From Bdellovibrio sp. (GTDB lineage: Bacteria; Bdellovibrionota; Bacteriovoracia; Bacteriovoracales; Bacteriovoracaceae), in NCBI GenBank assembly GCA_020720455.1, contig DYOQ01000002.1, positions 23,736 to 87,735 of the forward strand: a stretch of DNA of 64,000 nucleotides. Reading direction: 5' to 3'. Under the pieces are notes generated by a model that made no database searches, had not been told where the DNA came from, and saw only the letters and a program-made list of their open reading frames with translations. Numbering within the stretch: position 1 is the stretch's first letter; every line of letters begins with the position of its first letter. Shown here piece by piece: positions 15,969 through 54,646 of the stretch. The translations under genes were made by a program, and so were the position numbers.

Positions 15969-16065
15969 TTGCCTTCCTCCATAAACACAAATTAAATAAA
16001 TTCTTTTAGGCTTCCCGCCCTTGTTCTTAAAAAAACGGACTAAGTTGCACGCTTTTTAGAACGTA

Positions 16066-16100: not shown

Positions 16101-16226
16101 CGATTTCTACAAAATAACTGAATATTTAGGTTAGCTAAAGGTTTAGTGTACTTTTCCTTATAATTACGAAGTATTACAATTTTTTGAAATTTTTTGAATA
16201 ATCGTAACAAATATTACCAAACTACT

Positions 16227-18268: not shown

Positions 18269-18280
18269 AAATATCTCCTA

Positions 18281-28185: not shown

Positions 28186-29121
28186 TCAGTAAAGTTGAAC
28201 AAAATCACCTTCAACTACACTACCTCCAGAATGAAGAATTGCAATTGAACCATCGGTGCCAAGATAATCTATCACCTCAATTGTCCCTTTAACATCACCC
28301 TTTGAAACACCTATCAATGCGCCGGTTTCAGGATCAAATACTTCAACACCTTCAGTAATTACTCTTAAAATATCACCAACATTTAGGCCACTATCTCTTC
28401 CTGCGTTCAAATAAATCTTATTCCCAACTATTCTAGCTACCCGACCTGTCCACTCCATTTTTTTAGATATCGCAATAATTTCAGGAACAGTCTTTCTTAC
28501 TGCTACTCTTGCTGCATATCTTAATAACTCTTGCCTATAACTAAGGTACTCCTCTTTTTCAGCATTAAAAAAACGGTACGTATTATCATCTGCATAACCA
28601 TCTAACACTTCTGTGTAAATTTCTTTGCTCGCATTAACATCAAAAATTCTAAGTTCAATTTTTGCTTCGCAAGCTGATGTAGTTTTTCTTATTAGGCCAA
28701 TCTCGTCACTTTTCTCTCTTACTCTAGCATCTAGAACCCTGCCAAAGACAACAAAATTTAGACCCACAATCTTTGCCTTCCGTGAAAGTTGAGCAAGTTT
28801 TACTCCGCCACCAGAGTAAACCTCTTTAGAACTTCCAAAAATCTGATTACCAACATTATCGAGAACAAATCCACCAGTGCGAGATAACTCCATTCTTAAC
28901 TCTTCTGTAGCAATAAGTGCCAAATCCTCGCCACCAACAGGAGCTTCATTAAACAGAGGGAGCAATGCAATTTTCTTTTTAACGTGACCTGCAAAAACTC
29001 TTCCTTGTTGCTCACTCTCAGGAACACCGCTACTATTTCTTTTAATCGGTGCTTCTGAACAAGAGAGCAGTAACGCCGTTATTAGTATGGATATACAGGA
29101 CAATCTGAAGCAGTTAAACAT
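28186..29121 (-). CDS. Lipoprotein; CsgG/LpoB-like N-terminal part and FlgT_C-like beta-barrel C-terminal part (tentative)
   Basis: 311 aa. Lipobox LLLS|C. KKIALLPLFNEAP...ELRMELSRTGGFVL resembles LpoB/CsgG-type lipoproteins. The C-terminal GRVARIVGNKIYLNAGRDSGLNVGDILRV resembles FlgT C-terminal-type barrels. Domain calls come from memory only. Confidence 0.55.
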   Translation of the reverse strand: MFNCFRLSCISILITALLLSCSEAPIKRNSSGVPESEQQGRVFAGHVKKKIALLPLFNEAPVGGEDLALIATEELRMELSRTGGFVLDNVGNQIFGSSKEVYSGGGVKLAQLSRKAKIVGLNFVVFGRVLDARVREKSDEIGLIRKTTSACEAKIELRIFDVNASKEIYTEVLDGYADDNTYRFFNAEKEEYLSYRQELLRYAARVAVRKTVPEIIAISKKMEWTGRVARIVGNKIYLNAGRDSGLNVGDILRVITEGVEVFDPETGALIGVSKGDVKGTIEVIDYLGTDGSIAILHSGGSVVEGDFVQLY

Positions 29122-29122
29122 C

Positions 29123-30514
29123 TCAACCCTCTCCTCTTTTGGCCATTTTTTTTAACGTCAAACTAAATGGATTACTTACCGGAACCTCAACTCGCAATGT
29201 TTCACTAATGATTTGCTCTGGAAGTGCTTTAAAAAATGATATCAGCTTCTCTCTATCACCGCTATAACGAACCTCAACCTTACCCTGTTTTCCATCATAC
29301 GACGCAATACTTAACTTGAGCTGCAGAACAACCCCTTTGGTTGCAACGTATTCATTAAATGACATGAGATCAACTATTGAATCAATATTTAAAATATCGA
29401 TAACAACTACACCGCTATCTGCCTCCATACTTACCACCTTCTCCTTAAACTGAGTCAACATCTCAAGAGGGCGTTGATATATGAAACTAGCAATATTCGA
29501 ACTTAATTGATGATCATTTGCTGTTGAATAAGAGAGAATTTCTTTATTAAAATCAACACTAGAGACAGAGTTTCGCTCTTGAATATCAAGTACAATTGCA
29601 TCTCCACCTATTTCAAACTCTCTTCGTTTAGTTGCTACATTCTCAGATAGTTTACTAACACGAATATTTATCTTCACCCAAAGCGTTCCGCCACTAGTTT
29701 CTGCGGTAAAACTCTCATCACCTTCAGACTTAAATGTTGACAGCGATTCATTAATAACAATATTTGCGGCCCGAGGTGTTCTATACAACTTATCTAGCTC
29801 ATTTATTTTATCATCATTAGCAACAAATACCTGAGCTACTACACCAGAATAATTCTCACTAACCCATTTTTTCCAATGATTATTTACGGTATCTGTTAAA
29901 TCAGAAGCGTTTGCAACGCCTAGTTCTTGCCATGACGTTGAAACCAAATCAAAACTACTTGAGATATAAATTGTAGAAAAACTTCTCACACTGCCAGAGA
30001 CTAAAAACCTACGATACATCTCGCTTAGAATTTTTCGATCAACATGTGCAGATATCTTCAAATAACGTGAACTCGCATTTTCAACAGAACGACTCATCTG
30101 CTGCTCTGAGTACGAAATAAGGGCCCTATCAAGTCTTCCAAAACGACTCTGAAGGGTAAACTTCTTCTCTCTTAACTCTTTGTGATACTTATCCGTATCG
30201 TTGATCTCACCAGTAGTCTTATCTGTATATTTTTGCTTTAAATCCTCCCAAGGCTTCTTAAAATACTCTTCAAATCTTGCATCATACGATTGCCAAAATG
30301 GTTCAGGGTCAAGCCCAAGATTTTTTAACTCTTTTGTAATAACATCTTTAAACGCACTATAAATCAACTGTTTCTTTACAAACGATAATGAATCATCACT
30401 TTGAGCATAAAACTGCCCATCACCAAGTACTGTCGTGCCGACAGAATTCGCTAATGAAAACTTCATTCCTAAAATACAAAAAAGTCCAAGAAGAATCAGG
30501 TAAATTTTTTTCAT
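29123..30514 (-). CDS. Secreted hypothetical protein
   Basis: 463 aa. Signal peptide MKKIYLILLGLFCILGMKFSLA. No recognisable catalytic motif. Tightly packed between dnaE and the lipoprotein gene (9-nt and 1-nt gaps). Confidence 0.7.
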   Translation of the reverse strand: MKKIYLILLGLFCILGMKFSLANSVGTTVLGDGQFYAQSDDSLSFVKKQLIYSAFKDVITKELKNLGLDPEPFWQSYDARFEEYFKKPWEDLKQKYTDKTTGEINDTDKYHKELREKKFTLQSRFGRLDRALISYSEQQMSRSVENASSRYLKISAHVDRKILSEMYRRFLVSGSVRSFSTIYISSSFDLVSTSWQELGVANASDLTDTVNNHWKKWVSENYSGVVAQVFVANDDKINELDKLYRTPRAANIVINESLSTFKSEGDESFTAETSGGTLWVKINIRVSKLSENVATKRREFEIGGDAIVLDIQERNSVSSVDFNKEILSYSTANDHQLSSNIASFIYQRPLEMLTQFKEKVVSMEADSGVVVIDILNIDSIVDLMSFNEYVATKGVVLQLKLSIASYDGKQGKVEVRYSGDREKLISFFKALPEQIISETLRVEVPVSNPFSLTLKKMAKRGEG

Positions 30515-34114: not shown

Positions 34115-34207
34115 ATCTCTTTTCCAAAAAAATTTGATAAATAGTAAATCATTTTGATTCTAGTGTCATAAAAATTATCCACTAACGCAGAGTGGCCACT
34201 TGTGATA

Positions 34208-35998
34208 TCAGCTCAATTTCTTAGAATTTTTTAAATTAAGGGCACGAAATGTAACATTTTGCAACGTAGTTGGGCGAACAGGTTTTAAACAGTGAATATC
34301 CATCCCTACACTATAGCATTTTTCAATGCCTTCTTTATAGGCATTGGCCGTTAATGCAATAATGGGAGTTCGACTACCAGACATACTCTCTAGTTCACGA
34401 ATCCGCTTAGTCGTATCGTAACCATCTAACTCTGGCATTAAACAATCCATATAAATCAAATCAAAATTTGTTTTACTGAAAATTTCAATAGCTTCAATTC
34501 CGTTAGACGCTGTAACAATATCGAGAATACCTATCTTATTAAGCATCCTAATAATAATTTTCTGAGTAAAATAATCATCCTCTACGAGTAGCACCTTTTC
34601 TTTGCCACTAATTGATTTTAAAATCAGGCCGTCATTTCCACAATCTATTGCATCTGTTACAAGTTCTACAGTAAAGGATACTGAGTTCTCACCCTCACCA
34701 AGATCATTTGCCCAAATTTTTCCACCTAATGCTTCAATTATTTTTTTAGAAACTTTATAAGAAAAATCTGTTCGCTCTATATCAAGAAATTTAACCCCAG
34801 TATCTTTAATATCAAACTCAATCTTTACGCCGTTAGAATCGAGCTTCAACATTTTAGCACTCAAGATTATATAACCTTCCCTCGTGTGCTTTAGAGAGTT
34901 ACCACATAAAATCATAATAACCTGTTTAATCCTTGTAACATCCCCCATAACATGAAGCGGGATTGAATCATCAATCTCAGTTTTAAACTCTAAAACTCTA
35001 TTCTGGGCCTTAAATTTAAAAATTTTTTCAATCTCTTCAAGCATATCATTAACAGAAAAATTAATTTTATCAATGACGAATCTATTTGTTCCAAGATTAT
35101 CCAAATCTAAAATTAGGTTTATAGAGTGGGCCAAAATATCTACAGAGTCTATAATAGCTCGAATATTTTTTTTATAAGTTTGATTAATATCGCTACCAAG
35201 CATAAACTGGCCTAGTCCAATAATGTTACTTAATGGGGTTCTTATTTCATGGGCCATCCCGGCCAGAAAACTAGATTTTTCAATCATCAAGTTTTCATTC
35301 ACGACCGTCTCGCCAAATATCTTATCTTTTATGAGAAAGATAATAATCATGATTGATGCAAAAATTGTTAAAAGCAAAATACCAAAATGTATTAGCAAGG
35401 AGTCTTTTAAAATTGCAATGCCATTACGAGGATTATTTACTGGGGCAATTACACTTAAGACACCGGCCAAATCGCCTATATTATAGAGAAAGCTAGTATA
35501 AGATCCATTATCGTTATTTGCCCCGTGACACTTTAAACAATATCTCTCAACCCATACTGGAACCGCGTAGCTATAGGCCTCTTTTTTGTTTATCAAAGTC
35601 TTTTCAAAAAACATCGCCGCATCACTGTTTTTTCTAAAATGATTGATCGCTCTTTGTTGTGACTCATTTGCTAAACGCTGCCTACCGACCGGATTATCAG
35701 AAACGTTACTAAAATACAACTCTTTGCTCTGCCACTTTTTTTCAAACTCTTCAAATAAAAAAGAGGTCGCATGCACAGGTGCTCTTTTTTCTTGAACTGA
35801 TGATTCATTAATTAAAACTCGCAAGTTTGCCTTATTCACCGACAACACTAAGTCACTCATGGCCTTAGAAAGTTTTATGTGTTCATGCATTTCATCATTG
35901 CTTAAAGAGGTGTACAGAAGCAACTCAATAAATACAAACAACACAATTGAGATCAGAGAACAAATTACAATAAGACGAGTTTTTACTGAAGTTTTCAT
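34208..35998 (-). CDS. Hybrid sensor histidine kinase with periplasmic CxxCH (DUF3365/Tll0287-like) sensor domain and C-terminal receiver
   Basis: 596 aa. TM1 at aa 8-30. The periplasmic domain contains CLKCH (aa 154-158, nt 35525-35539) followed by GDLAGVLSVIAP. TM2 at aa ~200-223. H-box MAHEIRTPLSN, N-box GNSLKHT. Receiver: VLLVEDD...DLIYMDCLMPELDG...ALTANA...KP. Confidence 0.85.
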   Translation of the reverse strand: MKTSVKTRLIVICSLISIVLFVFIELLLYTSLSNDEMHEHIKLSKAMSDLVLSVNKANLRVLINESSVQEKRAPVHATSFLFEEFEKKWQSKELYFSNVSDNPVGRQRLANESQQRAINHFRKNSDAAMFFEKTLINKKEAYSYAVPVWVERYCLKCHGANNDNGSYTSFLYNIGDLAGVLSVIAPVNNPRNGIAILKDSLLIHFGILLLTIFASIMIIIFLIKDKIFGETVVNENLMIEKSSFLAGMAHEIRTPLSNIIGLGQFMLGSDINQTYKKNIRAIIDSVDILAHSINLILDLDNLGTNRFVIDKINFSVNDMLEEIEKIFKFKAQNRVLEFKTEIDDSIPLHVMGDVTRIKQVIMILCGNSLKHTREGYIILSAKMLKLDSNGVKIEFDIKDTGVKFLDIERTDFSYKVSKKIIEALGGKIWANDLGEGENSVSFTVELVTDAIDCGNDGLILKSISGKEKVLLVEDDYFTQKIIIRMLNKIGILDIVTASNGIEAIEIFSKTNFDLIYMDCLMPELDGYDTTKRIRELESMSGSRTPIIALTANAYKEGIEKCYSVGMDIHCLKPVRPTTLQNVTFRALNLKNSKKLS

Positions 35999-36012
35999 TA
36001 CATCCCTTAGTT

Positions 36013-36759
36013 CTAAAAAACTCTGCTATATGGTGGCAAAATATCTCCCTCTTTAATTTTCATTCCATGAGAAATTTCGCTCGAATGACCTATAGTAACT
36101 CCATTTGGTAATTTTGACAAAGGATAGAGCGTACAATTTCTTCCAATATTACAGTTGTCACCAATTGTAGTTCCTGCAGTAATAGAGCTGTACGCTCCGA
36201 TATTACAATTTTGGCCAATCTTTACCCTCATTAAACAGAGTTTATCTCCAATGAAACTGTGGCCGGAAATAATTACATCTAACCCAAGTATTGCTCCGGC
36301 ACCAATCGATACCATAAATGGATCATTTATTCGCGAATAGACACTCGGGGCCATATTAAAAGATATTTTAGCTCCACACGCTCTTAAAAAAATAGGTCTT
36401 AAAAGAAATGAAGCGAATATAAAATGCCTTACTAGTGGTAACTGCCAAATTTTAGCAAATTGGAAATTTACAAACCAGATGACAACCATTTTATCACCAG
36501 TCTTATACAGTCCTGGTTTTGGCCTTGGAAGCAAGAAACCTACCACACATAATGATAAATAAAACGACAACGCAGAAATTATTAAAAGTAACAACGTATG
36601 TAGTACTGGAAAATTTTCAAGAATCGAGACAAAAGTAAACAGTTTAAAAAAAACAATCGTAATTGCTATCACTATTACCCAAAGAACCCAGTAAATAAAC
36701 TCACCAATCACATACTTTTTTGCATTTTGAGCATTATTATAATTACCAGCAGGCCTCAT
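36013..36759 (-). CDS. Membrane-anchored left-handed beta-helix (hexapeptide-repeat) transferase-like protein, paralogue B
   Basis: 248 aa. Two N-terminal TM helices, LPRPKPGLYK, LRACGAKISF, then hexapeptide turns IGQNCNIGAYSSITAGTTIGDNCNIGRNC. Paralogous to the upstream ORF. Confidence 0.8.
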   Translation of the reverse strand: MRPAGNYNNAQNAKKYVIGEFIYWVLWVIVIAITIVFFKLFTFVSILENFPVLHTLLLLIISALSFYLSLCVVGFLLPRPKPGLYKTGDKMVVIWFVNFQFAKIWQLPLVRHFIFASFLLRPIFLRACGAKISFNMAPSVYSRINDPFMVSIGAGAILGLDVIISGHSFIGDKLCLMRVKIGQNCNIGAYSSITAGTTIGDNCNIGRNCTLYPLSKLPNGVTIGHSSEISHGMKIKEGDILPPYSRVF

Positions 36760-36761
36760 TT

Positions 36762-37493
36762 TTAAACCTCTTTTTCAGAACTATCAGCAACAAGATATTT
36801 TCTGTTTTTACCATACTCATATTCAAAATTTTTAATGATAGTATTCGGCGCAACCGTATCAAACGATAAATTATTATTGCCACCGATTGACACATCATCG
36901 CCTATTGTAGTTTTAGGTCCAATAAGCGTTTTCATTCCAATAAAAACGTTTTTTCCTATCACAATTGGAGCTAATAAAATTTTCTCCCCTTGAAAATTAT
37001 GACACGATATGTGGCAATAGGCACCTATTGAAGAACCCTCACCTATTGTGATCAATGGGTACTCTCTAAACGTCACAAGTGTTGATGAAAAAATCCCGAA
37101 AGCAATTTTTGCGCCCATCGCTCTAAAATAGAGCCACTTCAAAGTTTTATTACTAAAGATCAACATTTTAAGAGATGCTATCTCTAATCCTTGAGCAAGA
37201 GAGTTATTTAGATGCCAAACAATTGCACCTTTACTAACGCCAGGCCGGTAAATTCCTGGTTTCATTTTTGGAAGTACTCGTTGAAATAAAAAACAAATTA
37301 AAATAAACAGTAACGATAAAACTAGTGGTGATATGATCACAGCTAAAAACATTAACCATACGTTTGTAGATAAAATATAAATAAAAGCACCAGCACCAAA
37401 CCAAGCAAGAGCAGCTGGTACTGCCGAATAAAAATAACCGACCATATCTGCAAGTAACAAAAACACTATCGATGGCCGTTTAGATGTACTCAT
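36762..37493 (-). CDS. Membrane-anchored left-handed beta-helix (hexapeptide-repeat) transferase-like protein, paralogue A
   Basis: 243 aa. Two N-terminal TM helices, LPKMKPGIYR, FRAMGAKIAF, then hexapeptide turns IGKNVFIGMKTLIGPKTTIGDDVSIGGNN. ATGA overlap with the SDR gene. Confidence 0.8.
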   Translation of the reverse strand: MSTSKRPSIVFLLLADMVGYFYSAVPAALAWFGAGAFIYILSTNVWLMFLAVIISPLVLSLLFILICFLFQRVLPKMKPGIYRPGVSKGAIVWHLNNSLAQGLEIASLKMLIFSNKTLKWLYFRAMGAKIAFGIFSSTLVTFREYPLITIGEGSSIGAYCHISCHNFQGEKILLAPIVIGKNVFIGMKTLIGPKTTIGDDVSIGGNNNLSFDTVAPNTIIKNFEYEYGKNRKYLVADSSEKEV

Positions 37494-38242
37494 TTCAACA
37501 ACCCTTTGGATCTAATAAGCGGCAACCCTCCACTTACGTTAATACTAGTTCCGCTGATATATGAGTCTTTATCGATAAAAGGCAAAGTTGCTTTTGCTAC
37601 CTGAGTAGCTTCTCCCATCCTCATCGCCGGAATTGGTCTGGAGACTTTTGCTATATAAAAATCTTTCTCCCAAAACCGTTTAGTTCTTTCCGTCTTAATT
37701 ATGCCAGGCCTTAGAATGTTTGAAAAAATATTATACTCACCATAATCAACAGCTAAATTATAAATAATCCCTTCCATCGCCGCTTTTCCAAGGCAGTACA
37801 TTCCGTATCTGCTAGCTCCATTTATCGCTGCTATTGAAGAGATAAACAGTACTCTACCAAAATTTTTATCCTTCATGTGTGGCAATATTTGTTTAAGAAG
37901 CCAGAGATTTCCTTTTACATTGTCCAGTTCCGTTTCCATCTCTTCATTAGAACAATCGTGAAATAGTTGCAAGTTTTCAACTTTGTTCCAAGCATTCAGT
38001 ATCACAACATCTATGCCACTATCTTCAAGCAATGATTGAATCACCTCTTGTGATTCCTCTGCTCTTTCAAGCAAAAAACGAACAACCTTTACTTTCGGTT
38101 CGATATTAAGATAAAGCTTAGTGACATCTAACACACTCTCATCACTTGAAGCTGTGACAATACACGAGTGGCCAATAGCAGAGTATCTTTTTACCATTTC
38201 ATACGCCATATCTGAGCGTCCACCAGTAATTAAAATATTCAT
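37490..38242 (-). CDS. Short-chain dehydrogenase/reductase (FabG-like ketoreductase)
   Basis: 250 aa. N-terminal ILITGG Rossmann start, NAW..., and the catalytic SS...YCLGKAA (S-Y-K) arrangement. Confidence 0.8.
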   Translation of the reverse strand: MNILITGGRSDMAYEMVKRYSAIGHSCIVTASSDESVLDVTKLYLNIEPKVKVVRFLLERAEESQEVIQSLLEDSGIDVVILNAWNKVENLQLFHDCSNEEMETELDNVKGNLWLLKQILPHMKDKNFGRVLFISSIAAINGASRYGMYCLGKAAMEGIIYNLAVDYGEYNIFSNILRPGIIKTERTKRFWEKDFYIAKVSRPIPAMRMGEATQVAKATLPFIDKDSYISGTSINVSGGLPLIRSKGLLK

Positions 38243-38263
38243 AACAACCTCTTTTCTATCCTT

Positions 38264-39220
38264 CTATCTTTTCTTAAATCTTAACATCTTTTTGCTTTCA
38301 AAATAGGTAATACTACTCTTTATCATCTCCTCTATCTCAATTTGGGGGGCATATCCAAAATCACGAAATGCTTTTTCGCTGCTTGCACTATACGAAAGAC
38401 AAAACTCTTTAACCATCTCTCCATTTATTATATCCGAGAAATCTATTTTTCCCAGGTCAACTTCCGTGATATTGGAAATAGATTCACCAGTAATTTTAGC
38501 ATAGCAATCTAAAAACTCTTTTATCTTATAATTATATCCGCCAAGTATATAATTTCCACTAGCACCACTTGATATTGCATCTAACACGCCCCTTGCTACA
38601 TCCGAAGCGGCAACAAAATTTTTGGTATTATTAATATAGCTTGTAAACTTGCCCATTTTAAGCGCGAAAAAAATAGCACCAGATGATGGCCTACTATCAA
38701 ACTCCCCTAACATATAACAAGGATGAATAGTCAAGAGTGGAAGCTGACTATTATTAGACAACCAAAGGTCAGCCTCTTTTTTTGTTCTACCATAAACAGT
38801 CTCTCTCCAAAAACTAGAGCTACATTCATCTATCATAGATGCATAACTGCTACTTCCAAAACAGGCGATACTTGAAATTTGAATAAATTTTTTTACTCCG
38901 CTAGCAAGCGCCCAGTGATAAAGGTTTTTAACACCACTAACATTTACCATCTCCATCATAGAACTATCTTTTTCAAAAGGACTAGCAAAAGCAGCGGCAT
39001 TAATTACGACATCAAACTTTTCTGTAACAAACGTCTCAACATTTGAAAGATCCATTGAGACTGTCGTATAGTTAACATTTTCGACAGTTCCAATATACGT
39101 TTTTGATGATACGTTTCTAGCAGCGCCGACTACTGTAAATCCTCGCGCTAAAGATTCCTTAACCAGATGGGAACCAAGAAGTCCAGAGGCCCCAGTAATT
39201 AAAATTTTCAAATGCCCCAC
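38264..39220 (-). CDS. NAD-dependent epimerase/dehydratase-family (extended SDR) protein
   Basis: 318 aa. ILITGASGLLGSHL and YGRTKKEAD (YxxxK). A TTG at 39211 (MKILITG...) preceded by AGGTGG is an alternative start. Confidence 0.8.
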   Translation of the reverse strand: MGHLKILITGASGLLGSHLVKESLARGFTVVGAARNVSSKTYIGTVENVNYTTVSMDLSNVETFVTEKFDVVINAAAFASPFEKDSSMMEMVNVSGVKNLYHWALASGVKKFIQISSIACFGSSSYASMIDECSSSFWRETVYGRTKKEADLWLSNNSQLPLLTIHPCYMLGEFDSRPSSGAIFFALKMGKFTSYINNTKNFVAASDVARGVLDAISSGASGNYILGGYNYKIKEFLDCYAKITGESISNITEVDLGKIDFSDIINGEMVKEFCLSYSASSEKAFRDFGYAPQIEIEEMIKSSITYFESKKMLRFKKR

Positions 39221-40197
39221 CTAATTGAAACTAACCCTAAATGGTATCCAGCACCCATTGCCATCATTAGAACTCTATCCCCTTTTTTTATCACACCTTT
39301 ATTATACGCATGCGATAGCGAAACTCCAGCGCTAGCGCTAGAAGAGTTTCCAAAAGTTTCAAAATTTATCCACGCCTTTTCTAGTGGTATTCCAAGTCTT
39401 TGGCAAATAACTCTAATCAAATTTCCATTACCCTGATGAAAAATAAAGTGATCATAGTCACTCTTACTCATCCCTTTATTTTTTAGAGTGTTCTCTATTT
39501 CATTAATAAGTTCAACAGTAGTTTTTTCAAAAATTTTACTCCCATCAACCATAGTTATTAGATGGCCACCGCTTGCAAAACTTTCATTAGTTAAAGGAGC
39601 AGCACTCCCGCCACCTGGAATTAAAATCTCATACTCATCACTACCAACAGTCTGAGTAACAATCCACTCGATCTCACCAGGTGGATTGTCACTTCTTTCT
39701 AATTTAATAGCACAAGCAGCATCAGAAAAAAGAAAAACTGTCCGTCTATCTTGAGTATTTAAAAATTTACTTCTTACTTCAGAAGCTATGACTAGCACCT
39801 CACTATCAACAGAAGAGGTCATCAACTTATTATATCCAAGTTCTAATGCAAATATTTGGCCAGCACATGCAGCATTAACATCAGTAGCACTTGATCTACC
39901 AGAAATTCCTAATTTACGTTTTACAATTGAGCTTGTTGATGGTGTTGGAAAATCACCGGAAATTGTAGAAAGATATATTGGGCCACAAAACCCTTCGAGG
40001 TCTAATTGTTTGGCCGCACTTACGGCCAAATCACTTGCGGCCTCGTTGGCGTTTGCCCAACGTCTCTCTTTTATTCCTATGACTTTCTCAACCCAAGCTG
40101 GTTTCATTCTAATATTAAATCGTTCAATCATCTCACTATTGGTTACAACTTGTTCAGGAACGTAGTGTGAAATTCCAGAAATCCAAATTTTACTCAT
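39208..40197 (-). CDS. 3-oxoacyl-ACP synthase III (KAS III/FabH-like), copy 2
   Basis: Start taken at MSKIWISGISHYVPEQ (ATG 40197, 8-nt overlap with the ligase stop); the track ORF extends 22 codons further upstream. Cys-His-Asn triad contexts: NAACAGQ, FHQGN, FGNSSSAS. Confidence 0.85.
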   Translation of the reverse strand: MSKIWISGISHYVPEQVVTNSEMIERFNIRMKPAWVEKVIGIKERRWANANEAASDLAVSAAKQLDLEGFCGPIYLSTISGDFPTPSTSSIVKRKLGISGRSSATDVNAACAGQIFALELGYNKLMTSSVDSEVLVIASEVRSKFLNTQDRRTVFLFSDAACAIKLERSDNPPGEIEWIVTQTVGSDEYEILIPGGGSAAPLTNESFASGGHLITMVDGSKIFEKTTVELINEIENTLKNKGMSKSDYDHFIFHQGNGNLIRVICQRLGIPLEKAWINFETFGNSSSASAGVSLSHAYNKGVIKKGDRVLMMAMGAGYHLGLVSIRWGI

Positions 40198-41521
40198 GTT
40201 TAATCCTTGATAAAAGATCTTGTCTATTAACCTTTCCCAATGAAAAGCGAGGAAATTGCTCAAAACAGTGGATCTCTTTTGGCACCTGATAAATAGTTAA
40301 TTTATGCTTTAAAAAATCATCAAGAAGTTTAACCTCAATCATTCCTTCTACGGCGAGGATTGGATACTCTTCATATTCACTACTTTTCTTTTTAAACACG
40401 ATACAATCAGTGATCAAATCATACTCTTTAACAACATCTTCAATATCTTTTGGATAAACGCTAATTCCACCAACGTTGATTAAATCATCCTCTCTTGAGA
40501 GAAAATTCACGCTCCCACATTCATCTATGCATACCAAATCTCTCGTTAGTAAATAATCATCGACCAACTCGTCTGCGCCAAGATTAATCTTGAGATATGG
40601 AGTTTTAATACAAAGTTTTCCCTCTCCACTTTTTTTAACTACTCCGTTTCTTAGAACTGCAAGCGTTACTCCTGAGATTGATTCACCAATATAACCCGTA
40701 GGCCTATCTCTTTTCCAAACTCCTGTAGTCACCCTTGGCCCAGCTTCAGTGAGGCCATAAGTTGTATAAATCTTTGTCGCAGGAAATAGTTCGGATAACT
40801 TCTCAAGTAAACCAGTGGACGCCATCCCACCTCCGACACTAAAACTCTTTATCCCCTTAATTCCTCCGCTCCTCTCTTTTACTACAAATGAGAGTTGAGC
40901 TGGACTAAGATGTAAAATGCAATCACAAAGCTCTCTTTTTTGCAAGGCCCTTATTCCTAAGAATGCTCGATTAAAATTTAGCCTATTTCCGACTTCAATC
41001 GTTGTAAAAATATACGCGATTATTCCAAATGAATGATAAATTGGTAGCGACTGAATAACTTGGTCTTCACTAGCAATATTTAAACTATCAGCATGTGCCT
41101 TAGCACAAGCTCTTGCATTAACCGCATCAAGTACACATAGCTTGGGAACACTCGTTGTCCCAGATGTTAAAGATCCATAGCAACCAGTGACGCTAGCTTT
41201 AACACTACCGCCAGTAACTTTAAAATTATCAAGAACCACTGGATTTCCACGAGACATCTTAATCTTATCAAATTGAAAATCTGGAAGATCTGTTGGGATA
41301 GCTACTGGAAAATGTCCAGCATCAATGGCCGCCAGAAAAATTAGAGCAAACCTAAATGGGTCTTTATCTCTTAACAAGATCTCACTATTTGAGGCCAACT
41401 CATTAATAATGGAGCTTACCTCTAGAAGAAGTTGCTCTTTAAACTCCTGAGTACAAACACTCTTCTCGACTGAGATCTCTCTTGAAATAAATAGTGAACA
41501 AAGATTACTAGACATTATCAC
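40190..41521 (-). CDS. AMP-dependent synthetase/ligase (adenylate-forming enzyme), short form
   Basis: 443 aa. Core motifs LTSGTTSVPK, YGLTEAGP, TRDLV...REDDLINVGGISVYPKDIE, and the terminal LGKVNR. Alternative ATG start at 41515. Confidence 0.85.
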   Translation of the reverse strand: MIMSSNLCSLFISREISVEKSVCTQEFKEQLLLEVSSIINELASNSEILLRDKDPFRFALIFLAAIDAGHFPVAIPTDLPDFQFDKIKMSRGNPVVLDNFKVTGGSVKASVTGCYGSLTSGTTSVPKLCVLDAVNARACAKAHADSLNIASEDQVIQSLPIYHSFGIIAYIFTTIEVGNRLNFNRAFLGIRALQKRELCDCILHLSPAQLSFVVKERSGGIKGIKSFSVGGGMASTGLLEKLSELFPATKIYTTYGLTEAGPRVTTGVWKRDRPTGYIGESISGVTLAVLRNGVVKKSGEGKLCIKTPYLKINLGADELVDDYLLTRDLVCIDECGSVNFLSREDDLINVGGISVYPKDIEDVVKEYDLITDCIVFKKKSSEYEEYPILAVEGMIEVKLLDDFLKHKLTIYQVPKEIHCFEQFPRFSLGKVNRQDLLSRIKHE

Positions 41522-41760
41522 TCAAGCCTTTCTAAATGCTTTACACAATCATCAATGGTACTCCAATCAGCTATGGCCATCTCGTCTAGCGCTGGATAGG
41601 CTTCTTGAAGTTCATAAACTAAACTCATTAATGCTAAAGAATCAAAGCCAAGATCTGCTTTAAACTCCATCTCTTGACGAATCTCTTTTAGATTAACCTT
41701 TGGATTTAAATCTTCACACTTTTCAATTACTGATAATACTTTTTCAAAGATCATGTTCAT
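41518..41760 (-). CDS. Acyl/peptidyl carrier protein
   Basis: 80 aa from MNMIFEK. Phosphopantetheine attachment motif DLGFDSLALMSL. AAGGTG RBS lies inside the end of the upstream gene. The track ORF carries an 11-codon N-terminal extension, which I discard. Confidence 0.85.
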   Translation of the reverse strand: MNMIFEKVLSVIEKCEDLNPKVNLKEIRQEMEFKADLGFDSLALMSLVYELQEAYPALDEMAIADWSTIDDCVKHLERLE

Positions 41761-41762
41761 AC

Positions 41763-42779
41763 TTACACCTTTTGCATGGCAAGAGCTGCCCAAGAGAGGC
41801 CACCACCAACTGCATGATAAACAATAATATCACCACTATTTATTTTCCTAGTACTCATCCACTGCATATAGTTCAAAAATATTGTAGGACAACCCATATT
41901 ACCAAACTGTTCAAAATTAAGAGCGATCGCCTCATCTGGAATATCAAACTCTTTGGCAAACTGATAATTTTTTGAACCGTCAACTTGATGTGCAATATAG
42001 TGATGAATCTCTCTTCCAGAAATATTAGAGACTCTAAGTAAATCTTCTAACGATTTTTTCCAATAGTGAGCAATCATCTCAGAGGTTCCCCCCTTCTCGC
42101 TAAAATTAAACGTATACTCTAACGGATTATAGCACTTGACATCTACTGGATACTTCCCTGGAACATACATAGATTTCATAAACCGGGCATCTGTACCATG
42201 AACTGCTCCTAAAACTTTAAAATCTTTTGCTGGCTCCACAACAAAGGCAACTGCCCCATCCCCTATCGAAGCTGCCATCTGCAATGTCTCTTTATTGGTA
42301 AATTTTGAAAAAGTCTCACTACAAACAATAATCCCTTTCTTTGCCCCTCTGTTGACCCATTCAAGTGCCTGCATAAGAGCTAGCACTCCTGTCGAACAAC
42401 CAGATTTCAAATCCCAGCAACTTGTATTTTGCAACTCGAGTTCTGAAGCTAAAAATGCACTCTGACATACTGTTGGCATGGGATTAGAAATTCCAGCAAA
42501 AATCATAAACTCGGCATCTGTTACAAGGCCTGGATCACTCTGTATTAACTTAGAGAGGGCACTCTTTGCTAAATCAAGCGAGTCAACACCATCTTTGGCC
42601 CAATACCGATTTTTAATCTTCATCTTCTTCGTAATAAACTCAAGAAGTCGAACATCCGCATTCCCATCTCGGCCATATTTTAAAATATCTTCGTTCTCAA
42701 TAGAGTGCATAGTAGAAAAATCACAGCTTTTAATAGATCTAATGTTAATTCCAAAAAAAAAATTATTTGCATTAAACAT
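41763..42779 (-). CDS. 3-oxoacyl-ACP synthase III (KAS III/FabH-like), copy 1
   Basis: 338 aa. Triad contexts LKSGCSTGVLAL, IAHQVDG, FGNMGCPT. 8-nt overlap with the upstream carboxyltransferase. Confidence 0.85.
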   Translation of the reverse strand: MFNANNFFFGINIRSIKSCDFSTMHSIENEDILKYGRDGNADVRLLEFITKKMKIKNRYWAKDGVDSLDLAKSALSKLIQSDPGLVTDAEFMIFAGISNPMPTVCQSAFLASELELQNTSCWDLKSGCSTGVLALMQALEWVNRGAKKGIIVCSETFSKFTNKETLQMAASIGDGAVAFVVEPAKDFKVLGAVHGTDARFMKSMYVPGKYPVDVKCYNPLEYTFNFSEKGGTSEMIAHYWKKSLEDLLRVSNISGREIHHYIAHQVDGSKNYQFAKEFDIPDEAIALNFEQFGNMGCPTIFLNYMQWMSTRKINSGDIIVYHAVGGGLSWAALAMQKV

Positions 42780-44310
42780 TATCCACCAACCTGTTTAAAT
42801 CTTCATCAACCCCAACATACTTCGAATATCCTGACATCAATTTGCTAGTAGAATACCCACTAAATGACATCAGATACTCATCAACATTGACATCATTTTC
42901 TGCAACATTTCTATTATTAATAAGCGTAGCAATGATTTCAGTACCGATTTCATCACGTTTAATGATTTTATCTAAAATTCCTTGTTCCATATAATCTGAA
43001 AAATCTGCTTTCTCATTCGTACGATTCTCTTCCCATTCGGCATGAAGTCTTGGTGACGACGATAGAAGATGAGAAATAATATTATCACCCATTATTCCAC
43101 AAGCTCCACCCTCTACGATTGTTGTTTTTTGACCACCAAAGAATGGAGGTATTGAACTAACCGAAGCTCCACCATAACAACGGCCAGTAATAAACCCCTT
43201 TTTTAAATATGGATAATCAATTATATCTACCGTCATCTGAGTCATCTCTTCTAGTATCCCTTTATCATTTTCTTCTACGCGAGGATCTCCACCAGGAGTG
43301 TCAACTATTGTAAAGATCGGAAGCTTTAATTTTTTTAGCAAATTAAGAGCAAGCCTAAATTTTTTAATGGCCTCAACGGTAATCATGTTGGCCTTCCCTT
43401 TAGGATTCATGAAGGTTGCAAAATTATAAATTAGCATCTTATGCATATGAATTTTAACAACTGGGCTTAATTGTGAAAATAGCTCTATCCGAGTTGAACC
43501 AATTGCATCCAGTGTTGGGTCTGCATCAGCATTTGAACCGTGCCTACTAGATTCCACAAGCAAACCATTATCAACAACATTTGAAAATAGAAAAATTTCC
43601 CGAATCTTGCGGTTAACTTCCTCTTGAGAATCACAGATATCATGAACAATCGAATTTTTTTTCTGCTGCCTCTTACTAGAAGCTATCTCATCAAAATTTG
43701 CCTTTGCTCCAAAAAACATCTTAAAGACTTCTGGCCCCGTTAAATTTAGATGAGAATCCTCTGAAATTGCAAAGCGGTAATCTCCAAAAGTGTATAACAA
43801 TGCTCCAATGCCAAGTGCTCTTTTTTTCACTACAGTAATTAATAAATTATCCTTAACAAAATCCTTGAGAGCAGGAATCACTCGAAAGGCACCATCAAAA
43901 ACCTTTCGCCCCTCCATAATCCTTACCCCTATTGAATCGATAATAAATATTACAGGGGTCTCTTCATTTTTCATCTGCTTTAAAAATGCAACCATTCTTC
44001 TAGAATTTTCAGTTCCAAACCCGCCACCCTTAATCTTAAAATCATTAAGGACAACTCCGACACTTTTACCAGCAATGATACCTCTAGCTGTTATAATGCC
44101 ATCACACTCGGTTCTGATCGAGCCTGTTAGGTTTTCGCTTGGGAGATAGAGTTCTAGTGGAGTCCCTGTATCAAAAAGAGATTTAATTGTTGAAAGAAAC
44201 GACAAGGTATTATCTGTCAGTATAAATTCGTAGTTCAAAACAGCTCCTTTGTTCAACCTATATATAACACCCACTTTCGGCGAAAAAGCTATTCTTGTCG
44301 ATTTAATCAT
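42772..44310 (-). CDS. Carboxyltransferase-family protein (fused AccD-like + AccA-like halves, PccB-type)
   Basis: 512 aa. N-half: GKSVGVVLNDFKIKGGGFG...PVIFIIDSIGVRIMEG. C-half: LPIFTIVDTPGGDP...ITGRCYGGAS. AGGGGG RBS. First gene of the operon. Confidence 0.8.
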   Translation of the reverse strand: MIKSTRIAFSPKVGVIYRLNKGAVLNYEFILTDNTLSFLSTIKSLFDTGTPLELYLPSENLTGSIRTECDGIITARGIIAGKSVGVVLNDFKIKGGGFGTENSRRMVAFLKQMKNEETPVIFIIDSIGVRIMEGRKVFDGAFRVIPALKDFVKDNLLITVVKKRALGIGALLYTFGDYRFAISEDSHLNLTGPEVFKMFFGAKANFDEIASSKRQQKKNSIVHDICDSQEEVNRKIREIFLFSNVVDNGLLVESSRHGSNADADPTLDAIGSTRIELFSQLSPVVKIHMHKMLIYNFATFMNPKGKANMITVEAIKKFRLALNLLKKLKLPIFTIVDTPGGDPRVEENDKGILEEMTQMTVDIIDYPYLKKGFITGRCYGGASVSSIPPFFGGQKTTIVEGGACGIMGDNIISHLLSSSPRLHAEWEENRTNEKADFSDYMEQGILDKIIKRDEIGTEIIATLINNRNVAENDVNVDEYLMSFSGYSTSKLMSGYSKYVGVDEDLNRLVDNV

Positions 44311-44440
44311 TTAACAAACCCCCTGCATAACTGTCAAACAAGACATTTATGATAACTTTTTTAATATGGCAGTCTATACTACAAAAATGGGCCGGCCATT
44401 GTGTAATTAGCTTAAACATGTAATTTATACAGATTTTTTT

Positions 44441-45229: not shown

Positions 45230-48200
45230 TTATAACTCTAAATTTAAAGGTGCCCCATGCCTCATCGTATTAACGGCAAGAGATCTCTCCCAACAAAACT
45301 GCCGTAAATAAGTATAAAAATCATCAACATCAGGAGATTCATAAGGAGTAACAAACGATGTCATTACCTTTTCATCAAAACTGTTATCATAAACAGTGTT
45401 TAGCGCATCTTGAACGTTTGCATCAGAACCACTCACTATAACACAAGCAAGATAGTTATCTTTTAGGGCCTTGTCTAACAAGGTTTCTGTTGGAAAAAAC
45501 ACATTCAAATTCTCTTTAGAAATTCCGGCCTTTTCAAAATGTTTAATAAACAATGACCACCAAACAAAAGATCTTTGGTTTCTTGCCAAAACAGTTACAC
45601 CTGTTCCAACACTTATTGCAGATAACACTTGTAAAAGAGTCCTAATACCAGGCATCTCATTGTAAGCAACAACGATCGCCTTCTCTCTTGGTAAGAAATA
45701 GTTGTTATAACTAAGTTGTCCAGGGATGGCCTTATTGGAATGTTTTTCCCCAACAAAACCTACTAGCTGGCCATCTAACCAATCTCTAAAATTCGAAATA
45801 ACCTCTTTGTTACTAGAATTAACACCTTTAAAAATTGTTTCAAAATGTAACAAGACTGAGCTAAATGCTCTTTTCAGTCTAAGTAGCCTTGCATCTGCAC
45901 CAAGCCCTGATTTTTTACAAAGATCAAAAATGTAATCATTTCCTTTTTCAATCTGAGTATCACTCTTATTAACCTCATCAGCTGGAAGAAGATGGAATGA
46001 GCTTAAATACCCTGTTCCACCGGCCTTTGGCCCAGTTCCTGATAGTTTAAAACCACCAAATGGTTCAATTCCTACTCTAGCTCCTGTAATTGATCTATTA
46101 ACATAGACATTACCAACTTCCATTCTTTCTACTAAGTAATCAATATCATCTTGTGACTGACTAAATATTCCGCCTGTAAGAGCGTACTCTGTATTGTTAA
46201 ATAGCTTTATCGCTTCATCTAAATCATCAAAGCCGATAACGTGAAGTGCTGGGCCAAATAGCTCTTTATTTGCGTAGCTATCTGGTTGTAGTGCTCTTTT
46301 TGCAGGAAGCTCAATGACTGCCGGGCCAACACAAAAACCAGGAAGATTATCTTTAGATCTATCTGCAACAACTTTTCCACCAAAGTTCAGGGCCTCTTTT
46401 GAAGCAGCCTCAATCTCAGTTCTAAGTCTTCGCTTATCAGCTTCACATATAACCGGATTAACAGTAGTTGAAAATTTATACGCCTCAGCGACCTCAAGAT
46501 CATTAACTGCCTCTTTTAATCTTTCCAGCAATCTATCTTTAACTCTATTATCGACTAAAACTCTAGAAGCAGCAGAACACTTTTGTCCGCTATGGGCAAA
46601 TGATGAATAAAGAATTCCAGAAACCGTCTCATCTAATTCCGCATTTGCAGTAACGATGATCGCGTTTTTGCCACCCATCTCTGTAATAACTTTTGCCGGA
46701 AAACTTACATTGAATAGTTTGTTTTCAACAATTCGCTTACCAAGCTTATGAGCAATTCTCATCCCAACTTCTTTAGAACCTGTAAAGACTACGCCACTTA
46801 TATATTCGTGCTCGATTAAAACATCCCCAATTGCTGAACCTTGACCTGGCAAGTGAATCAAAACATTTTTTGGAACTCCTGCTTCGTGCATGATATCGAC
46901 AAATTTTTGCGCTATTAACGGTGTATGTTTTGCTGATTTTAAAACAACACTATTACCAGCAACTAGTGCGCTTGTCGCCATACCGCAAGGAATCGCTAAA
47001 GGAAAATTCCAAGGAGCAACGACAGCAAAGACACCTCTTGAAATAATGGTTGGATTCTTCTTATTAAGCCTTCTCTCCTCTCTTGCATAAAAATTCAAAA
47101 AATCTACAGCTTCATCAACATCTGCCAAAGATTCTGGAATTGATTTTCCTGCTTCGTAACAAATCAGGGCCGCAAGATCATTTCTTCTTGCCACCATTAC
47201 TGATGCTGCTTTTAATAGAACACTTGCTCTTACTATCCAGTTGGCCTTTGCCCAACTACCATTTAAGTATGACTCATTAGCAAGCTCAACTGCCATGGCC
47301 GCATCTTTTGCTGTTGCAAATCTAATTTTACCAATAATAAGCTCTGGCCCAGACGAGGAAATAATCTCATGCCAATCTCCGCTAATTTCAAAACTATTTG
47401 GATATTCGCCACCAACATTCTCTTTAAATCTATCCAAAGAACATTTCATCCAATCTCTAGACTCTTTAACATAAAGTCGAAGGGGGGCAACATTAAAAAA
47501 TGCTGTAGTAAGTTCAGACATTGTAAGATTACGAACTAGCTCCCCTTTTTTCTTCTTTGAAGAGTGAACTTTATTAGGCGAATCAACACTCTGTGTTTTT
47601 CTATGTGATCTCATTATGGTTAAAACACCAACCTGCGATGAGTTCTCCATAATTCTTCTAACCAAGTAGGCCATCCCAACCAACAAACTACCAACTGGGA
47701 CGTAGTTTCTAACTGCAACCCCCATTTTGCTTAAACCATTTGAAAGCGCTTCATAAGTCATGTGAAGACATTGATGCTCAACAATCGGTGCTGATGGGAA
47801 AAGAGTCTCTCTTGCCACCATGGCAAAACAGTGATCAAGATAGTTATGAGAAGCTACCGCAAGAGTCAGATATTTACCCTCTTCAAGAATCTTAACAATC
47901 AACTGTCTAAAATGAATATCGGTCTCTTCTTTATTCAAAAATTCAGGAGCATCAAAACTATGAGCATCAGCGTGAATTGTTTCTGCATCCCAATATGCCC
48001 CCTTAACGATTCTTACAGGCATATTAATTCTTCGCTCTTTTGCCAAACTAATAATATCTTGTAAGTGAACATATGCATCTCTTAAATATGCTTGCAATAC
48101 AATTCCGGTTTTCGCAAAATCTTGTAACTCTGGCGTCTCAAGTAACACTCGTCTATAAACGTAAAAGACAATGTCTCGATAATCGTAATGTTCAGCATCG

Positions 48201-49432: not shown

Positions 49433-49575
49433 TTTTCCTCCAGTCGAAATGCGCTCACATTGCACGAATATATTTGAAACATAAATTTTTACCCTAGCTT
49501 TCACAATTAGTCTATTCGTCATTAATAAAGAACTATCATTGACTGACAGAGTCGTACATCTTAAGATATTTTAAT

Positions 49576-51870: not shown

Positions 51871-52209
51871 ATGAGTATTAAAAACAGAGGTTCAAAACTT
51901 TACAAAAATGATGGATTCTCCCTTGTAGAGATAATGATCGCAATAGCTCTTCTAGGCGGAGTAACAATCATATTTCTACACCTAACTGACAATATCAAAA
52001 AAACCGAACAGGCAATGCTTTCAACAATCGACGCTTCTGATTCTGTCATGATCCGAGTCTGTCGCTCTCTTGGGACTACCTATGATGCAAAAAATAGCAA
52101 GTGCGAGCTAAATATTAACTCTCCCGAGATGAACTCCATGAAAGATATCAAATTAGATTCTGCACAGATGGAAGAGTTAATGAAAAATATGCAAAAGATG
52201 TTTCAGTAA
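51871..52209 (+). CDS. Type IV pilin-like / pseudopilin protein with prepilin N-terminal methylation motif
   Basis: Start at ATG 51871. MSIKNRGSKLYKNDG|FSLVEIMIAIALLGGVTIIF contains the G|FxxxE cleavage/methylation motif plus a hydrophobic helix. 112 aa. Confidence 0.8.
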   Translation: MSIKNRGSKLYKNDGFSLVEIMIAIALLGGVTIIFLHLTDNIKKTEQAMLSTIDASDSVMIRVCRSLGTTYDAKNSKCELNINSPEMNSMKDIKLDSAQMEELMKNMQKMFQ

Positions 52210-54587: not shown

Positions 54588-54646
54588 AAAAACTCCACAA
54601 GAAACAGTTTTGACATGGGCCACAGCATCTATGTTATAATAAATCC

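Follow-up and report, generated by a model that had tools for sequence, protein, structure and literature searches.

What would a predatory bacterium assemble on an acyl carrier protein (ACP) of its own, and where would it deliver the product? The question is raised by ten genes on contig DYOQ01000002.1 of Bdellovibrio sp. (assembly GCA_020720455.1), found in a stretch of 64,000 nucleotides that was analyzed as a whole (positions 23,736 to 87,735 of the contig, hereafter called the window). Ten open reading frames (ORFs) on the minus strand fill positions 44310-34208 of the window. In the direction of transcription, they encode a carboxyltransferase (CT), a beta-ketoacyl-ACP synthase of type III (KAS III) named KAS1, an ACP, an adenylate-forming ligase (LIG), a second KAS III named KAS2, an extended short-chain dehydrogenase/reductase (eSDR), a classical short-chain dehydrogenase/reductase (SDR), two membrane proteins with a left-handed beta-helix (LbH1 and LbH2) and a hybrid histidine kinase. 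We infer that this cluster specifies a dedicated type II, i.e., discrete-enzyme, acyl assembly system for a specialized lipid or another hydrophobic acylated molecule of the envelope, a reading to which we give about an even chance of being correct.

The ORF list and an independent public gene call both returned the ten minus-strand ORFs at the coordinates given in a preliminary description of this DNA. The public call was made on a metagenome-assembled genome (MAG; GCA_974332015.1), the same sequence being present in JGI metagenome 3300000234 (prefix TB_GS09), and it has the same ten genes. The names of homologues point to Bacteriovoracaceae-like Bdellovibrionota. With the starts chosen by the gene caller, the nine junctions measure -8, +2, +2, -8, -4, +21, -4, +2 and +14 nt, and a purine-rich, Shine-Dalgarno-like stretch precedes most of the starts. 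The tight overlaps and gaps described earlier were thus found again, except for an overlap of 13 nt that rests on an alternative GTG start of eSDR at 39220, whose ribosome-binding site is poorer than that of the TTG at 39211. Gaps of 130 nt and 93 nt separate the cluster from proC and dnaE, respectively. A consensus scan placed a promoter-like site in the gap between proC and CT (TAGACT, 16 nt, TATCAT; 44349..44376, minus strand; 9 of 12 matches), which is weak evidence, such sites being no commoner in the region than in shuffled sequence. At the other end, 13 nt past the stop codon of the kinase gene, the same type of scan detected a hairpin followed by a run of T (34179..34195, minus strand), the sole terminator-like site on that strand outside coding regions. 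The common strand of the ten genes says little, because nearly all the genes from 14 kb to 49 kb of the window share it. It is the tight spacing, together with the same gene order in other genomes (see below), that makes the grouping exceed chance. The ten genes form one tightly packed operon, and their spacing, the hairpin and the recurrence of the set elsewhere bear out the earlier view of a single coupled unit with its own ACP and loading ligase.

We compared the proteins with Pfam and NCBIfam models. The family labels of the preliminary description were all confirmed, and the catalytic motifs are intact. Every protein of the cluster scores under the curated cutoff of every named NCBIfam family, KAS2 coming nearest, which makes them members of known superfamilies, yet of no characterized orthologous group. 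The coordinates that follow all refer to the minus strand. CT (512 aa; 42772..44310) matches PF01039 in two stretches (5.8e-25; 88 bits, cutoff 22.3), and its alignment to PccB/AccD6-type chains of the PDB spans residues 68-395, indicating that both halves of a fused carboxyltransferase are present. It is divergent from its nearest solved relatives, PccB, 12S and MmdA (about 1e-19 in the PDB search), and its orthologues (32-46% identity) adjoin KAS1 in nine other loci. KAS1 (338 aa; 41763..42779; PF08545 and PF08541), the signature gene of the cluster family, encodes a divergent KAS III whose best FabH match in the PDB is at 1.6e-17 and which has no OleA match at E <= 0.001. It has 81 homologues at 43% identity or more, and Cys128, His264, Asn294 and the motif CWD(I/L)KSGCS are invariant in the 18 homologues that were aligned.

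KAS2 (329 aa; 39208..40197; the same two Pfam domains) is much closer to FabH, with PDB matches at 7e-41 to FabH and at 5.6e-16 to OleA (3ROW). Its 226 bits against NF006829 (cutoff 249) are the nearest approach to any fatty acid synthase (FAS) model. Its active-site motif is ACAG, at residue 110, and the Cys-His-Asn residues are intact in both KAS III proteins. Between the two KAS genes lie those for the ACP and the ligase. The dedicated ACP (80 aa; 41518..41760; PF00550) carries Ser40 in a DSL motif and scores under the cutoffs of the NCBIfam ACP models. LIG (441 aa; 40190..41515; PF00501), a short ligase of the ANL superfamily that is presumed to load the ACP, has the P-loop TSGTT117, the motif YGLTE253 and a C-terminal GK. 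Its nearest solved relatives are MenE, FadD5 and malonyl-CoA synthetase (about 1e-19 in the PDB search); it reaches 69 bits against the AA-adenyl-dom model (cutoff 317), passes the cutoff of no NCBIfam model, and no OleC model is among the 25 best NCBIfam matches listed for it.

Two reductases follow. eSDR (315 aa; 38264..39211; PF01370, PF01073 and PF07993) has the motifs TGASGLLG (TGxxGxxG) and YGRTK (YxxxK) and falls in the neighborhood of HpnA, 3-beta-HSD, OleD and the thioester reductases, with scores far under all the cutoffs (HpnA, 111 bits; OleD model NF042422, 45 bits for a cutoff of 580; thioester reductase, 33 bits). SDR (250 aa; 37490..38242; PF00106 and PF13561; YCLGK at residue 149) is a classical FabG-like ketoreductase that scores 90-100 bits against FabG-type models, again under their cutoffs. 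The Pfam and NCBIfam scans revealed no dehydratase, enoyl reductase, thioesterase or malonyl transferase in the cluster, in agreement with the preliminary description for the first three.

The next two proteins are related to the Pls/PosA family of enzymes, which are the epsilon-poly-L-lysine and delta-poly-L-ornithine synthetases. LbH1 (243 aa; 36762..37493) and LbH2 (248 aa; 36013..36759) are paralogues, 26% identical, with the same architecture of a membrane hairpin followed by a left-handed beta-helix, and both are putative acyltransferases. They match TIGR02353, the model for the C-terminal domain of these synthetases, at 7.5e-15 and 1.6e-10, respectively (54.3 and 40.0 bits, far under the family cutoff of 423). 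The match of LbH2 covers residues 54-220, through the hydrophobic hairpin and the beta-helix, and its two hydrophobic segments lie inside residues 15-79. The AlphaFold model of LbH1 (pLDDT, 88.8) shows helices at residues 9-43 and 45-73, a strand at 80-82, three helices at 88-125 and then the beta-helix. Each repeat of the modeled PosA domain has been described with the same arrangement (PMC10522769).

Relatives of LbH1 were sought in two ways. A word-indexed search of 5.8 billion proteins yielded 14, of which the named ones all come from MAGs of Bacteriovoracaceae or Halobacteriovoraceae. A profile of the family, compared with 1.84 billion representatives in a search that used no word index, detected about 60 more stand-alone proteins of 200-280 aa, and then proteins of about 1300 aa that were matched three times each. 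The stand-alone proteins, among them WP_044188888.1 of Hyalangium minutum and one from a Bdellovibrionales MAG, include members from Myxococcota and Bdellovibrionota. The long matches that were scanned are Pls/PosA synthetases, with TIGR02353 at 1e-181 and an adenylation domain, and profile positions 30-219 align with each of their three repeats at 1e-42 to 1e-30. Two motifs are common to the stand-alone proteins and the Pls repeats, namely, (P/G)K(M/I)KPGxY, which comes right behind the second helix, and R(A/L)MGAKI; they read PKMKPGxY and RAMGAKI in LbH1. These matches show that LbH1 and LbH2 are single-repeat homologues of the C-terminal domain of Pls/PosA, hairpin included. Some other matches resemble P0066 (686 aa), in which TIGR02353 is found at 2e-161 with no adenylation domain; they are about 650-760 aa long. 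Such three-repeat proteins, devoid of adenylation and thiolation domains, may in some cases be incomplete sequences and in others act together with partners encoded separately.

A histidine in a loop of the beta-helix (His165 of LbH1, in the motif S-C/G-H; SGH in LbH2) is invariant across all the stand-alone proteins aligned. In the five three-repeat Pls/PosA-like proteins aligned (P0063, P0066, P0073, P0085 and P0093), it is found in repeat C3 only (IQTHLFEDR), the same loop position being occupied by Tyr, Phe or Val in C1 and by Met, Ala, Pro or Arg in C2. This distribution implies, as a prediction for Pls, one catalytic site per pseudo-trimer. In a gapped alignment, His165 falls within about four residues of the catalytic His115 of LacA, in the same loop. 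No experimental structure of a Pls-type domain was found in the PDB by sequence, family profile or fold (Foldseek); the nearest folds to LbH1 are those of soluble hexapeptide enzymes, namely, maltose, galactoside and serine acetyltransferases. Similarly, our literature search revealed no named catalytic residue of the Pls domain.

The resemblance to Pls/PosA thus extends over the two-helix hairpin, the short strand, the core helices, the beta-helix, the shared motifs and the loop histidine of C3, and a carrier-protein thioester would be the expected donor in both cases. In Pls, the donor is an amino acid bound to a carrier protein and the acceptor is free (PMC8949500, PMC10522769). There are also differences. 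Pls/PosA has three tandem repeats fused in about 700 residues, whereas LbH1 and LbH2 have one repeat each, with a histidine in each paralogue. The adenylation and thiolation domains are fused in Pls/PosA, whereas the ligase and the ACP are separate genes here. The LbH pair is partnered by an ACP of the FAS or polyketide synthase (PKS) type, KAS III and reductases rather than by an amino-acid-activating module and, unlike Pls/PosA, the LbH proteins are associated with MMPL proteins in relatives. Basic residues, read from the sequence, flank the hairpin on both sides, which fits a cytoplasmic location of the beta-helix. The most economical inference is that a trimer of LbH1 and LbH2 would take the acyl group off the cluster ACP and hand it to a nucleophile on the cytoplasmic side of the membrane. 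Transfer at the membrane, as proposed in the preliminary description, remains the best reading of this pair. Its statement that the cluster has no condensation domain is formally right, but the matches to TIGR02353, the profile and the motifs make LbH1 and LbH2 homologues of the condensation/polymerization catalyst of Pls/PosA.

Is this set of genes particular to one genome? A gene-neighborhood search showed that KAS III, ACP, ligase and KAS III, with two SDR genes and a membrane hexapeptide gene, recur elsewhere, and the extended block was found in at least five other genomes of Bacteriovoracaceae or Halobacteriovoraceae. The order KAS1-ACP-LIG-KAS2, accompanied by both SDRs, is kept at 36-60% identity in the loci denoted L005, L013, L015 and L017, and it is shuffled in L003. 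L005 (GCA_030425045.1) has KAS1-ACP-LIG-KAS2-eSDR-SDR in the same order (36-54% identity), and a divergent MMPL gene shares a 4-nt overlap with the LbH1 orthologue (pair at 7716-10723). L013, from a Halobacteriovorax marinus MAG (GCA_002163335.1), has KAS1-ACP-LIG-KAS2-SDR-eSDR, then LbH and MMPL genes that abut (15307-18306), and then CT; its LbH is nearer LbH2 than LbH1. In L015, from a Bacteriovoracaceae MAG, a CT gene overlapping a fatty-acid desaturase gene (pair at 7376-9717) precedes KAS1-ACP-LIG-KAS2-eSDR-LbH-like-SDR, and L017 carries this set too, on a contig of 5.8 kb. The shuffled cluster of L003, from a marine Halobacteriovoraceae genome, includes CT, GH3, MFS and MMPL genes, the MMPL gene being no more than 3 kb from LbH. 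In that locus, a bacterial GH3-family protein (8449-9942) adjoins the LbH gene, which hints at an amino-acid conjugate for that variant; in plants, GH3 proteins are acyl-acid amido synthetases. One more locus, that of P0013, has two LbH genes and an adjacent CT-desaturase pair, and it also encodes a glycosyltransferase, an Acyl_transf_3 protein, a MacB-type ABC system and a LolA-like protein.

The ACP gene immediately precedes the ligase gene in L005, L013, L015 and L017 and, with the window, in five genomes. Eleven loci have enough flanking sequence to be compared in this respect, and 8 of them contain a gene for a membrane LbH protein. LbH genes also occur on their own: L008 has an MMPL/LbH pair with a 4-nt overlap (7701-10747) and the rest of the cluster is absent, and L007 and L009 have an LbH1 homologue with neither the cluster nor MMPL. 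The absence of a transporter, stressed in the preliminary description, therefore holds for this window but not for the relatives, where an MMPL gene lies beside the hexapeptide gene and overlaps it by 4 nt in two loci.

KAS1 homologues at 43-47% identity were found in Alteromonas, Alkalilimnicola and Pseudomonadales. The gammaproteobacterial loci have a minimal unit made of CT, KAS1, KAS2 and SDR (L014, L016, L020 and L022). In L016, from a Pseudomonadales MAG, CT lies beside an 81-aa biotinyl protein (7912-9976), and two cytochrome P450 genes and a PlsC-type acyltransferase gene are also near the unit. Judging from these arrangements, there is a four-gene core to which the predatory lineage added the ACP-ligase pair, eSDR and the membrane LbH, usually with the exporter. 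A metagenome scan with the KAS1 alignment gave nine loci. A pattern-based scan in which the LbH alignment was run against 185,579 species genomes returned three already-known loci only; it is insensitive, and does not prove rarity.

The position of the cluster between core genes had been taken as a sign of an accessory insertion. The data do not support this idea. Both the GC content of the cluster (0.34-0.38) and its GC content at third codon positions (0.24-0.33, for 0.23-0.34 outside the cluster) match the values of the flanks. The window has no tRNA gene, no integrase gene was found, there is no Rfam match in 33.9-44.7 kb, and no repeats bound the cluster beyond short matches at chance level. 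The neighbors of the cluster differ from genome to genome (L003, L005, L013 and L015), which fits gene rearrangement as families diverged and not a recent gain. In Bacteriovoracaceae and Halobacteriovoraceae, the cluster seems to be a lineage trait, its predicted proteins being 40-70% identical.

The last gene of the operon encodes a hybrid histidine kinase of 596 aa (34208..35998) with PF11845, PF00512, PF02518 and PF00072 (HisKA-HATPase-REC). Its sensor is a periplasmic Tll0287-like domain (PF11845) in which CLKCH, at residues 154-158 (35525-35539), lies between two transmembrane segments. This c-type heme-binding motif suggests a redox or gas sensor. No comparable kinase gene was found beside the cluster in L005, L013, L015, L017 or L014, and the two-component genes near L003 and L016 are unrelated to it. 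The kinase gene is thus probably co-transcribed with the others here, as the preliminary description had it, but it is not conserved with the cluster in the five loci compared. A stand-alone Tll0287-like protein is encoded at 1136-1663 of L015, about 8 kb from the related cluster.

The favored pathway would start with LIG, which would adenylate a carboxylic acid and load it on the dedicated ACP. CT, working with a biotin carrier and a carboxylase encoded elsewhere, would provide a carboxylated extender (a malonyl or 2-alkylmalonyl thioester). KAS1 and KAS2 would catalyze one decarboxylative Claisen condensation each, and the FabG-like SDR and eSDR would reduce the keto groups; alternatively, eSDR may act on the thioester. 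The chain would retain its oxygen functions because there is no dehydratase or enoyl reductase. LbH1 and LbH2 would form a membrane-embedded beta-helix trimer with its catalytic domains facing the cytoplasm, a split version of the Pls/PosA polymerization domain. At the inner membrane, this trimer would release the acyl group from its thioester link to the ACP and pass it to an acceptor bearing a hydroxyl or an amine. In relatives, the product would then be handed to an MMPL (RND-type) exporter. The heme-c hybrid kinase, co-transcribed in this genome only, would stand outside the chemistry and probably tie expression or signaling to the redox state. The biotin dependence of CT is supported by the biotinyl protein adjoining it in L016, and its coupling to a desaturase gene hints at long acyl substrates. 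More generally, the MMPL, CT-coupled desaturase, P450 and PlsC-type acyltransferase neighbors suggest a hydrophobic, possibly long-chain product. The preliminary description had proposed a short acyl unit transferred at the membrane; the transfer is retained in our reading, but in view of these neighbors the shortness of the unit is not established.

Several observations weigh against the pathway as drawn. The specificities of the enzymes are guesses, because all of them score under the cutoffs of the named families. No exporter, biotin carboxylase or biotin carrier was detected among the large ORFs scanned in the window. LIG could instead work with a free acid or with CoA, and the two KAS III proteins could be the halves of a single heterodimer instead of accounting for two extension rounds. 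The catalytic role proposed for His165 of LbH1 is deduced from its invariance and from the position of the LacA histidine in a gapped alignment. Finally, the gammaproteobacterial minimal form has no ACP or ligase, and usually no LbH, suggesting that the core chemistry may run on CoA or on a housekeeping ACP.

How does the cluster compare with known systems? The FAS II cycle (FabD, FabH/F, FabG, FabZ/A and FabI) is incomplete here, only KAS III, ACP and SDRs being present. The cluster has none of the KAS I/II, dehydratase or DarA proteins of aryl-polyene and dialkylresorcinol systems, and the DarB model gives 26-35 bits for a cutoff of 550. In line with the preliminary description, the family-model scores and the missing parts indicate no match to the FAS II, aryl-polyene, dialkylresorcinol or olefin types. 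LpxA and LpxD share the left-handed beta-helix with the LbH pair and, as is proposed for that pair, they have a catalytic histidine in a loop of the helix and use an acyl-ACP donor with a beta-hydroxyacyl group. They differ in that their trimers are soluble, take acyl groups from the housekeeping ACP and have UDP-sugars as acceptors, and the LbH proteins score 25-40 bits for cutoffs above 200, a generic hexapeptide likeness only. No description of the cluster or of stand-alone Pls-type proteins was found in open-access papers and bioRxiv preprints, and no characterized type of cluster, whether compared here or sought in that literature, matches it. What is undescribed is the combination of a dedicated CT, an MMPL partner in relatives and a KAS III/ACP pathway that is served by two single-repeat Pls-type proteins of the membrane. 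Its logic joins two known kinds, discrete-enzyme assembly on an ACP, as in wfpC-G (see below) and FAS II, and beta-helix transfer from a carrier, as in LpxA/LpxD and Pls.

Other products have been considered. The wfpC-G genes of Flavobacterium psychrophilum form an O-antigen module predicted to make the 3,5-dihydroxyhexanoyl group of UDP-Qui2NAc4N (PMC6519341). As in our cluster, two 3-ketoacyl-ACP synthases flank a dedicated ACP and are accompanied by a ketoreductase and a hexapeptide acyltransferase, with no dehydratase or enoyl reductase. By analogy, the cluster might build a C4-C6 hydroxyacyl group (e.g., 3,5-dihydroxyhexanoyl) from acetyl and malonyl units and N-acylate an amino sugar of a surface glycan or another amine, which is essentially the proposal of the preliminary description. 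The shared core, the close relationship of KAS2 to FabH and the fit between a dihydroxy product and the missing dehydratase and enoyl reductase speak for such a decoration. However, the wfp module, compared here by gene content and not by sequence, needs no ligase, CT, eSDR or MMPL, nor does it have the kinase, and the desaturase, P450 and MMPL neighbors of our cluster point to a hydrophobic product. Moreover, the wfp module lies within a glycan locus and has a soluble homologue of PglD to acylate a UDP-amino sugar, whereas the LbH proteins are Pls-type proteins embedded in the membrane by their hairpins and reach 22-32 bits against the NeuD/PglB/VioB model (cutoff 160). Glycosyltransferase, Wzx/Wzy, sugar aminotransferase and dehydratase genes are absent from the window and from most related loci. 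We hence regard a short decoration of this sort as unlikely. The preliminary description had also asked whether the same gene set is part of a characterized O-antigen locus; wfpC-G comes partway, but its product is only predicted, and its transferase type and genetic context are different.

An equally unlikely scenario is a head-to-head condensation yielding a branched product, either convergent with the making of mycolates or akin to the Ole/Lst beta-lactone pathways. CT would carboxylate C2 of a long acyl-CoA, LIG would load a second fatty acid on the ACP, a KAS III would join the two chains into a 2-alkyl-3-ketoacyl thioester, and one of the SDRs would reduce it; the product would be either transferred by LbH and exported by MMPL or cyclized to a beta-lactone by the ligase. 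FadD32-Pks13-AccD4-CmrA-MmpL3 is the mycolic acid condensation system, and for each of its parts there is a functional equivalent in the cluster or in its relatives: CT, a carrier-loading ligase, Claisen condensation, keto reduction by an SDR, transfer, and export by MMPL. The proteins, however, are unrelated or distantly related, with discrete KAS III enzymes in place of a type I PKS, LbH in place of a thioesterase domain and a Gram-negative host. LstABCD and NltABCD comprise two KAS III proteins, an ANL ligase and a 3-beta-HSD-type SDR, the families found in our cluster. OleABCD and these pathways have in common with our cluster the KAS III-fold condensing enzyme(s), the ANL ligase, the 3-beta-HSD-type extended SDR and the absence of a dehydratase (for background on the Ole/beta-lactone pathway, see PMC7064751). 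The coupling of CT to a membrane desaturase in two loci, its position beside a biotinyl protein in one, and the weak match of eSDR to the OleD model also agree with this scenario. Against it, neither KAS III is OleA-like (KAS2 matches FabH at 7e-41 versus 6e-16 for OleA, KAS1 has no OleA match, and the KAS III proteins of the cluster are FabH-like), the ligase has only 441 aa, lies next to an ACP in every case and resembles MenE/FadD most, no OleC model being among its 25 best matches listed, and OleB is absent. It would also leave the presence of two KAS III and two SDRs unexplained, and the CT and the membrane LbH are extra with respect to Ole/Lst. A published screen reported an active OleA from H. 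marinus, 38% identical to that of Xanthomonas. This protein was considered as a possible KAS1 or KAS2 and rejected; it is genuinely OleA-like, unlike the FabH-like KAS1 and KAS2, and is the product of a different gene.

Two more explanations appear improbable. The four genes CT, KAS1, KAS2 and SDR might be a paralogous module for the initiation or short elongation of fatty acids that serves lipid synthesis in general, with the ACP-ligase pair, the LbH genes and the kinase gene as unrelated neighbors on a common transcript, so that there would be no single pathway. Alteromonas, a Pseudomonadales MAG and some metagenome contigs do have the four-gene core by itself, the kinase is not conserved with the cluster, and LbH1 homologues lie away from any such cluster in L007, L008 and L009. 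Yet five genomes have the ACP-ligase pair inserted, in an unchanged order, between the two KAS genes, and 8 of 11 loci have retained an LbH gene with the cluster through rearrangements; co-occurrence that persists through gene shuffling argues for a functional linkage. Even less probable, by a little, is an iterative synthase of polymers or oligomers. LbH1 and LbH2 would be a split, heteromeric Pls-type polymerase fed by the FAS/PKS-type ACP in place of an NRPS thiolation domain, the trimer repeatedly adding ACP-bound hydroxyacyl or aminoacyl units to the free end of the chain already made and extruding an oligo- or polyester, or an oligo-amide, across the inner membrane through a six-helix bundle. 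Pls-type domains, with which they share homology over the hairpin too, are the sole catalysts known to work in this way; the donor in Pls is bound to a carrier while the growing acceptor is free, and a chain that is not dehydrated would keep a hydroxyl usable as a nucleophile. However, this is an argument purely by analogy, the stand-alone proteins form a distinct clade with the histidine in every subunit instead of in C3 only, and the MMPL, desaturase and P450 context favors a lipid. To our knowledge, no such polymer has been described in these bacteria. If this explanation were true, the pair would represent a new class of enzymes, a carrier-protein-dependent, membrane-embedded polyester synthase in predatory bacteria. 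We keep to the acyl assembly pathway ending in transfer at the inner membrane.

Other genes of the window, all on the minus strand, deserve mention. The putA gene (45230-49522) encodes an unusually long PutA homologue (1430 aa) that combines a proline dehydrogenase domain and an aldehyde dehydrogenase domain. The gene abuts proC with a gap of 0 nt from stop to start, and the proline catabolic and biosynthetic genes thus appear to be on a shared transcript. An 806-aa protein of the penicillin-amidase family (PF01804, 5.8e-189) is encoded at 52203-54623. That family includes acylases of acyl-homoserine lactones, which could matter for a predator. Two ORFs of 463 and 311 aa with no Pfam match lie immediately downstream of dnaE, between it and the dihydroorotate dehydrogenase gene (28186-30514), and an ORF of 1926 aa (7004-12784) has a GC content of 0.40, the top value among the genes sampled.

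Bdellovibrio-like predators remodel not only their own envelope but also the envelope of the prey. The conserved, dedicated pathway described here, whose product would be an oxygenated acyl group and which is linked to MMPL in relatives, is a candidate for the synthesis of an uncharacterized envelope lipid or membrane-active molecule in these bacteria. The LbH pair also brings to light a family of proteins that stand alone and have a single repeat related to the Pls/PosA domain; about 60 cluster representatives were identified. With one repeat, the candidate catalytic histidine in every subunit and a discrete ACP, such proteins would be far easier to study, as to both structure and mechanism, than synthetases of 1300 residues, and they bring a testable prediction for Pls, namely, that the catalytic loop histidine would be found in repeat C3 only.

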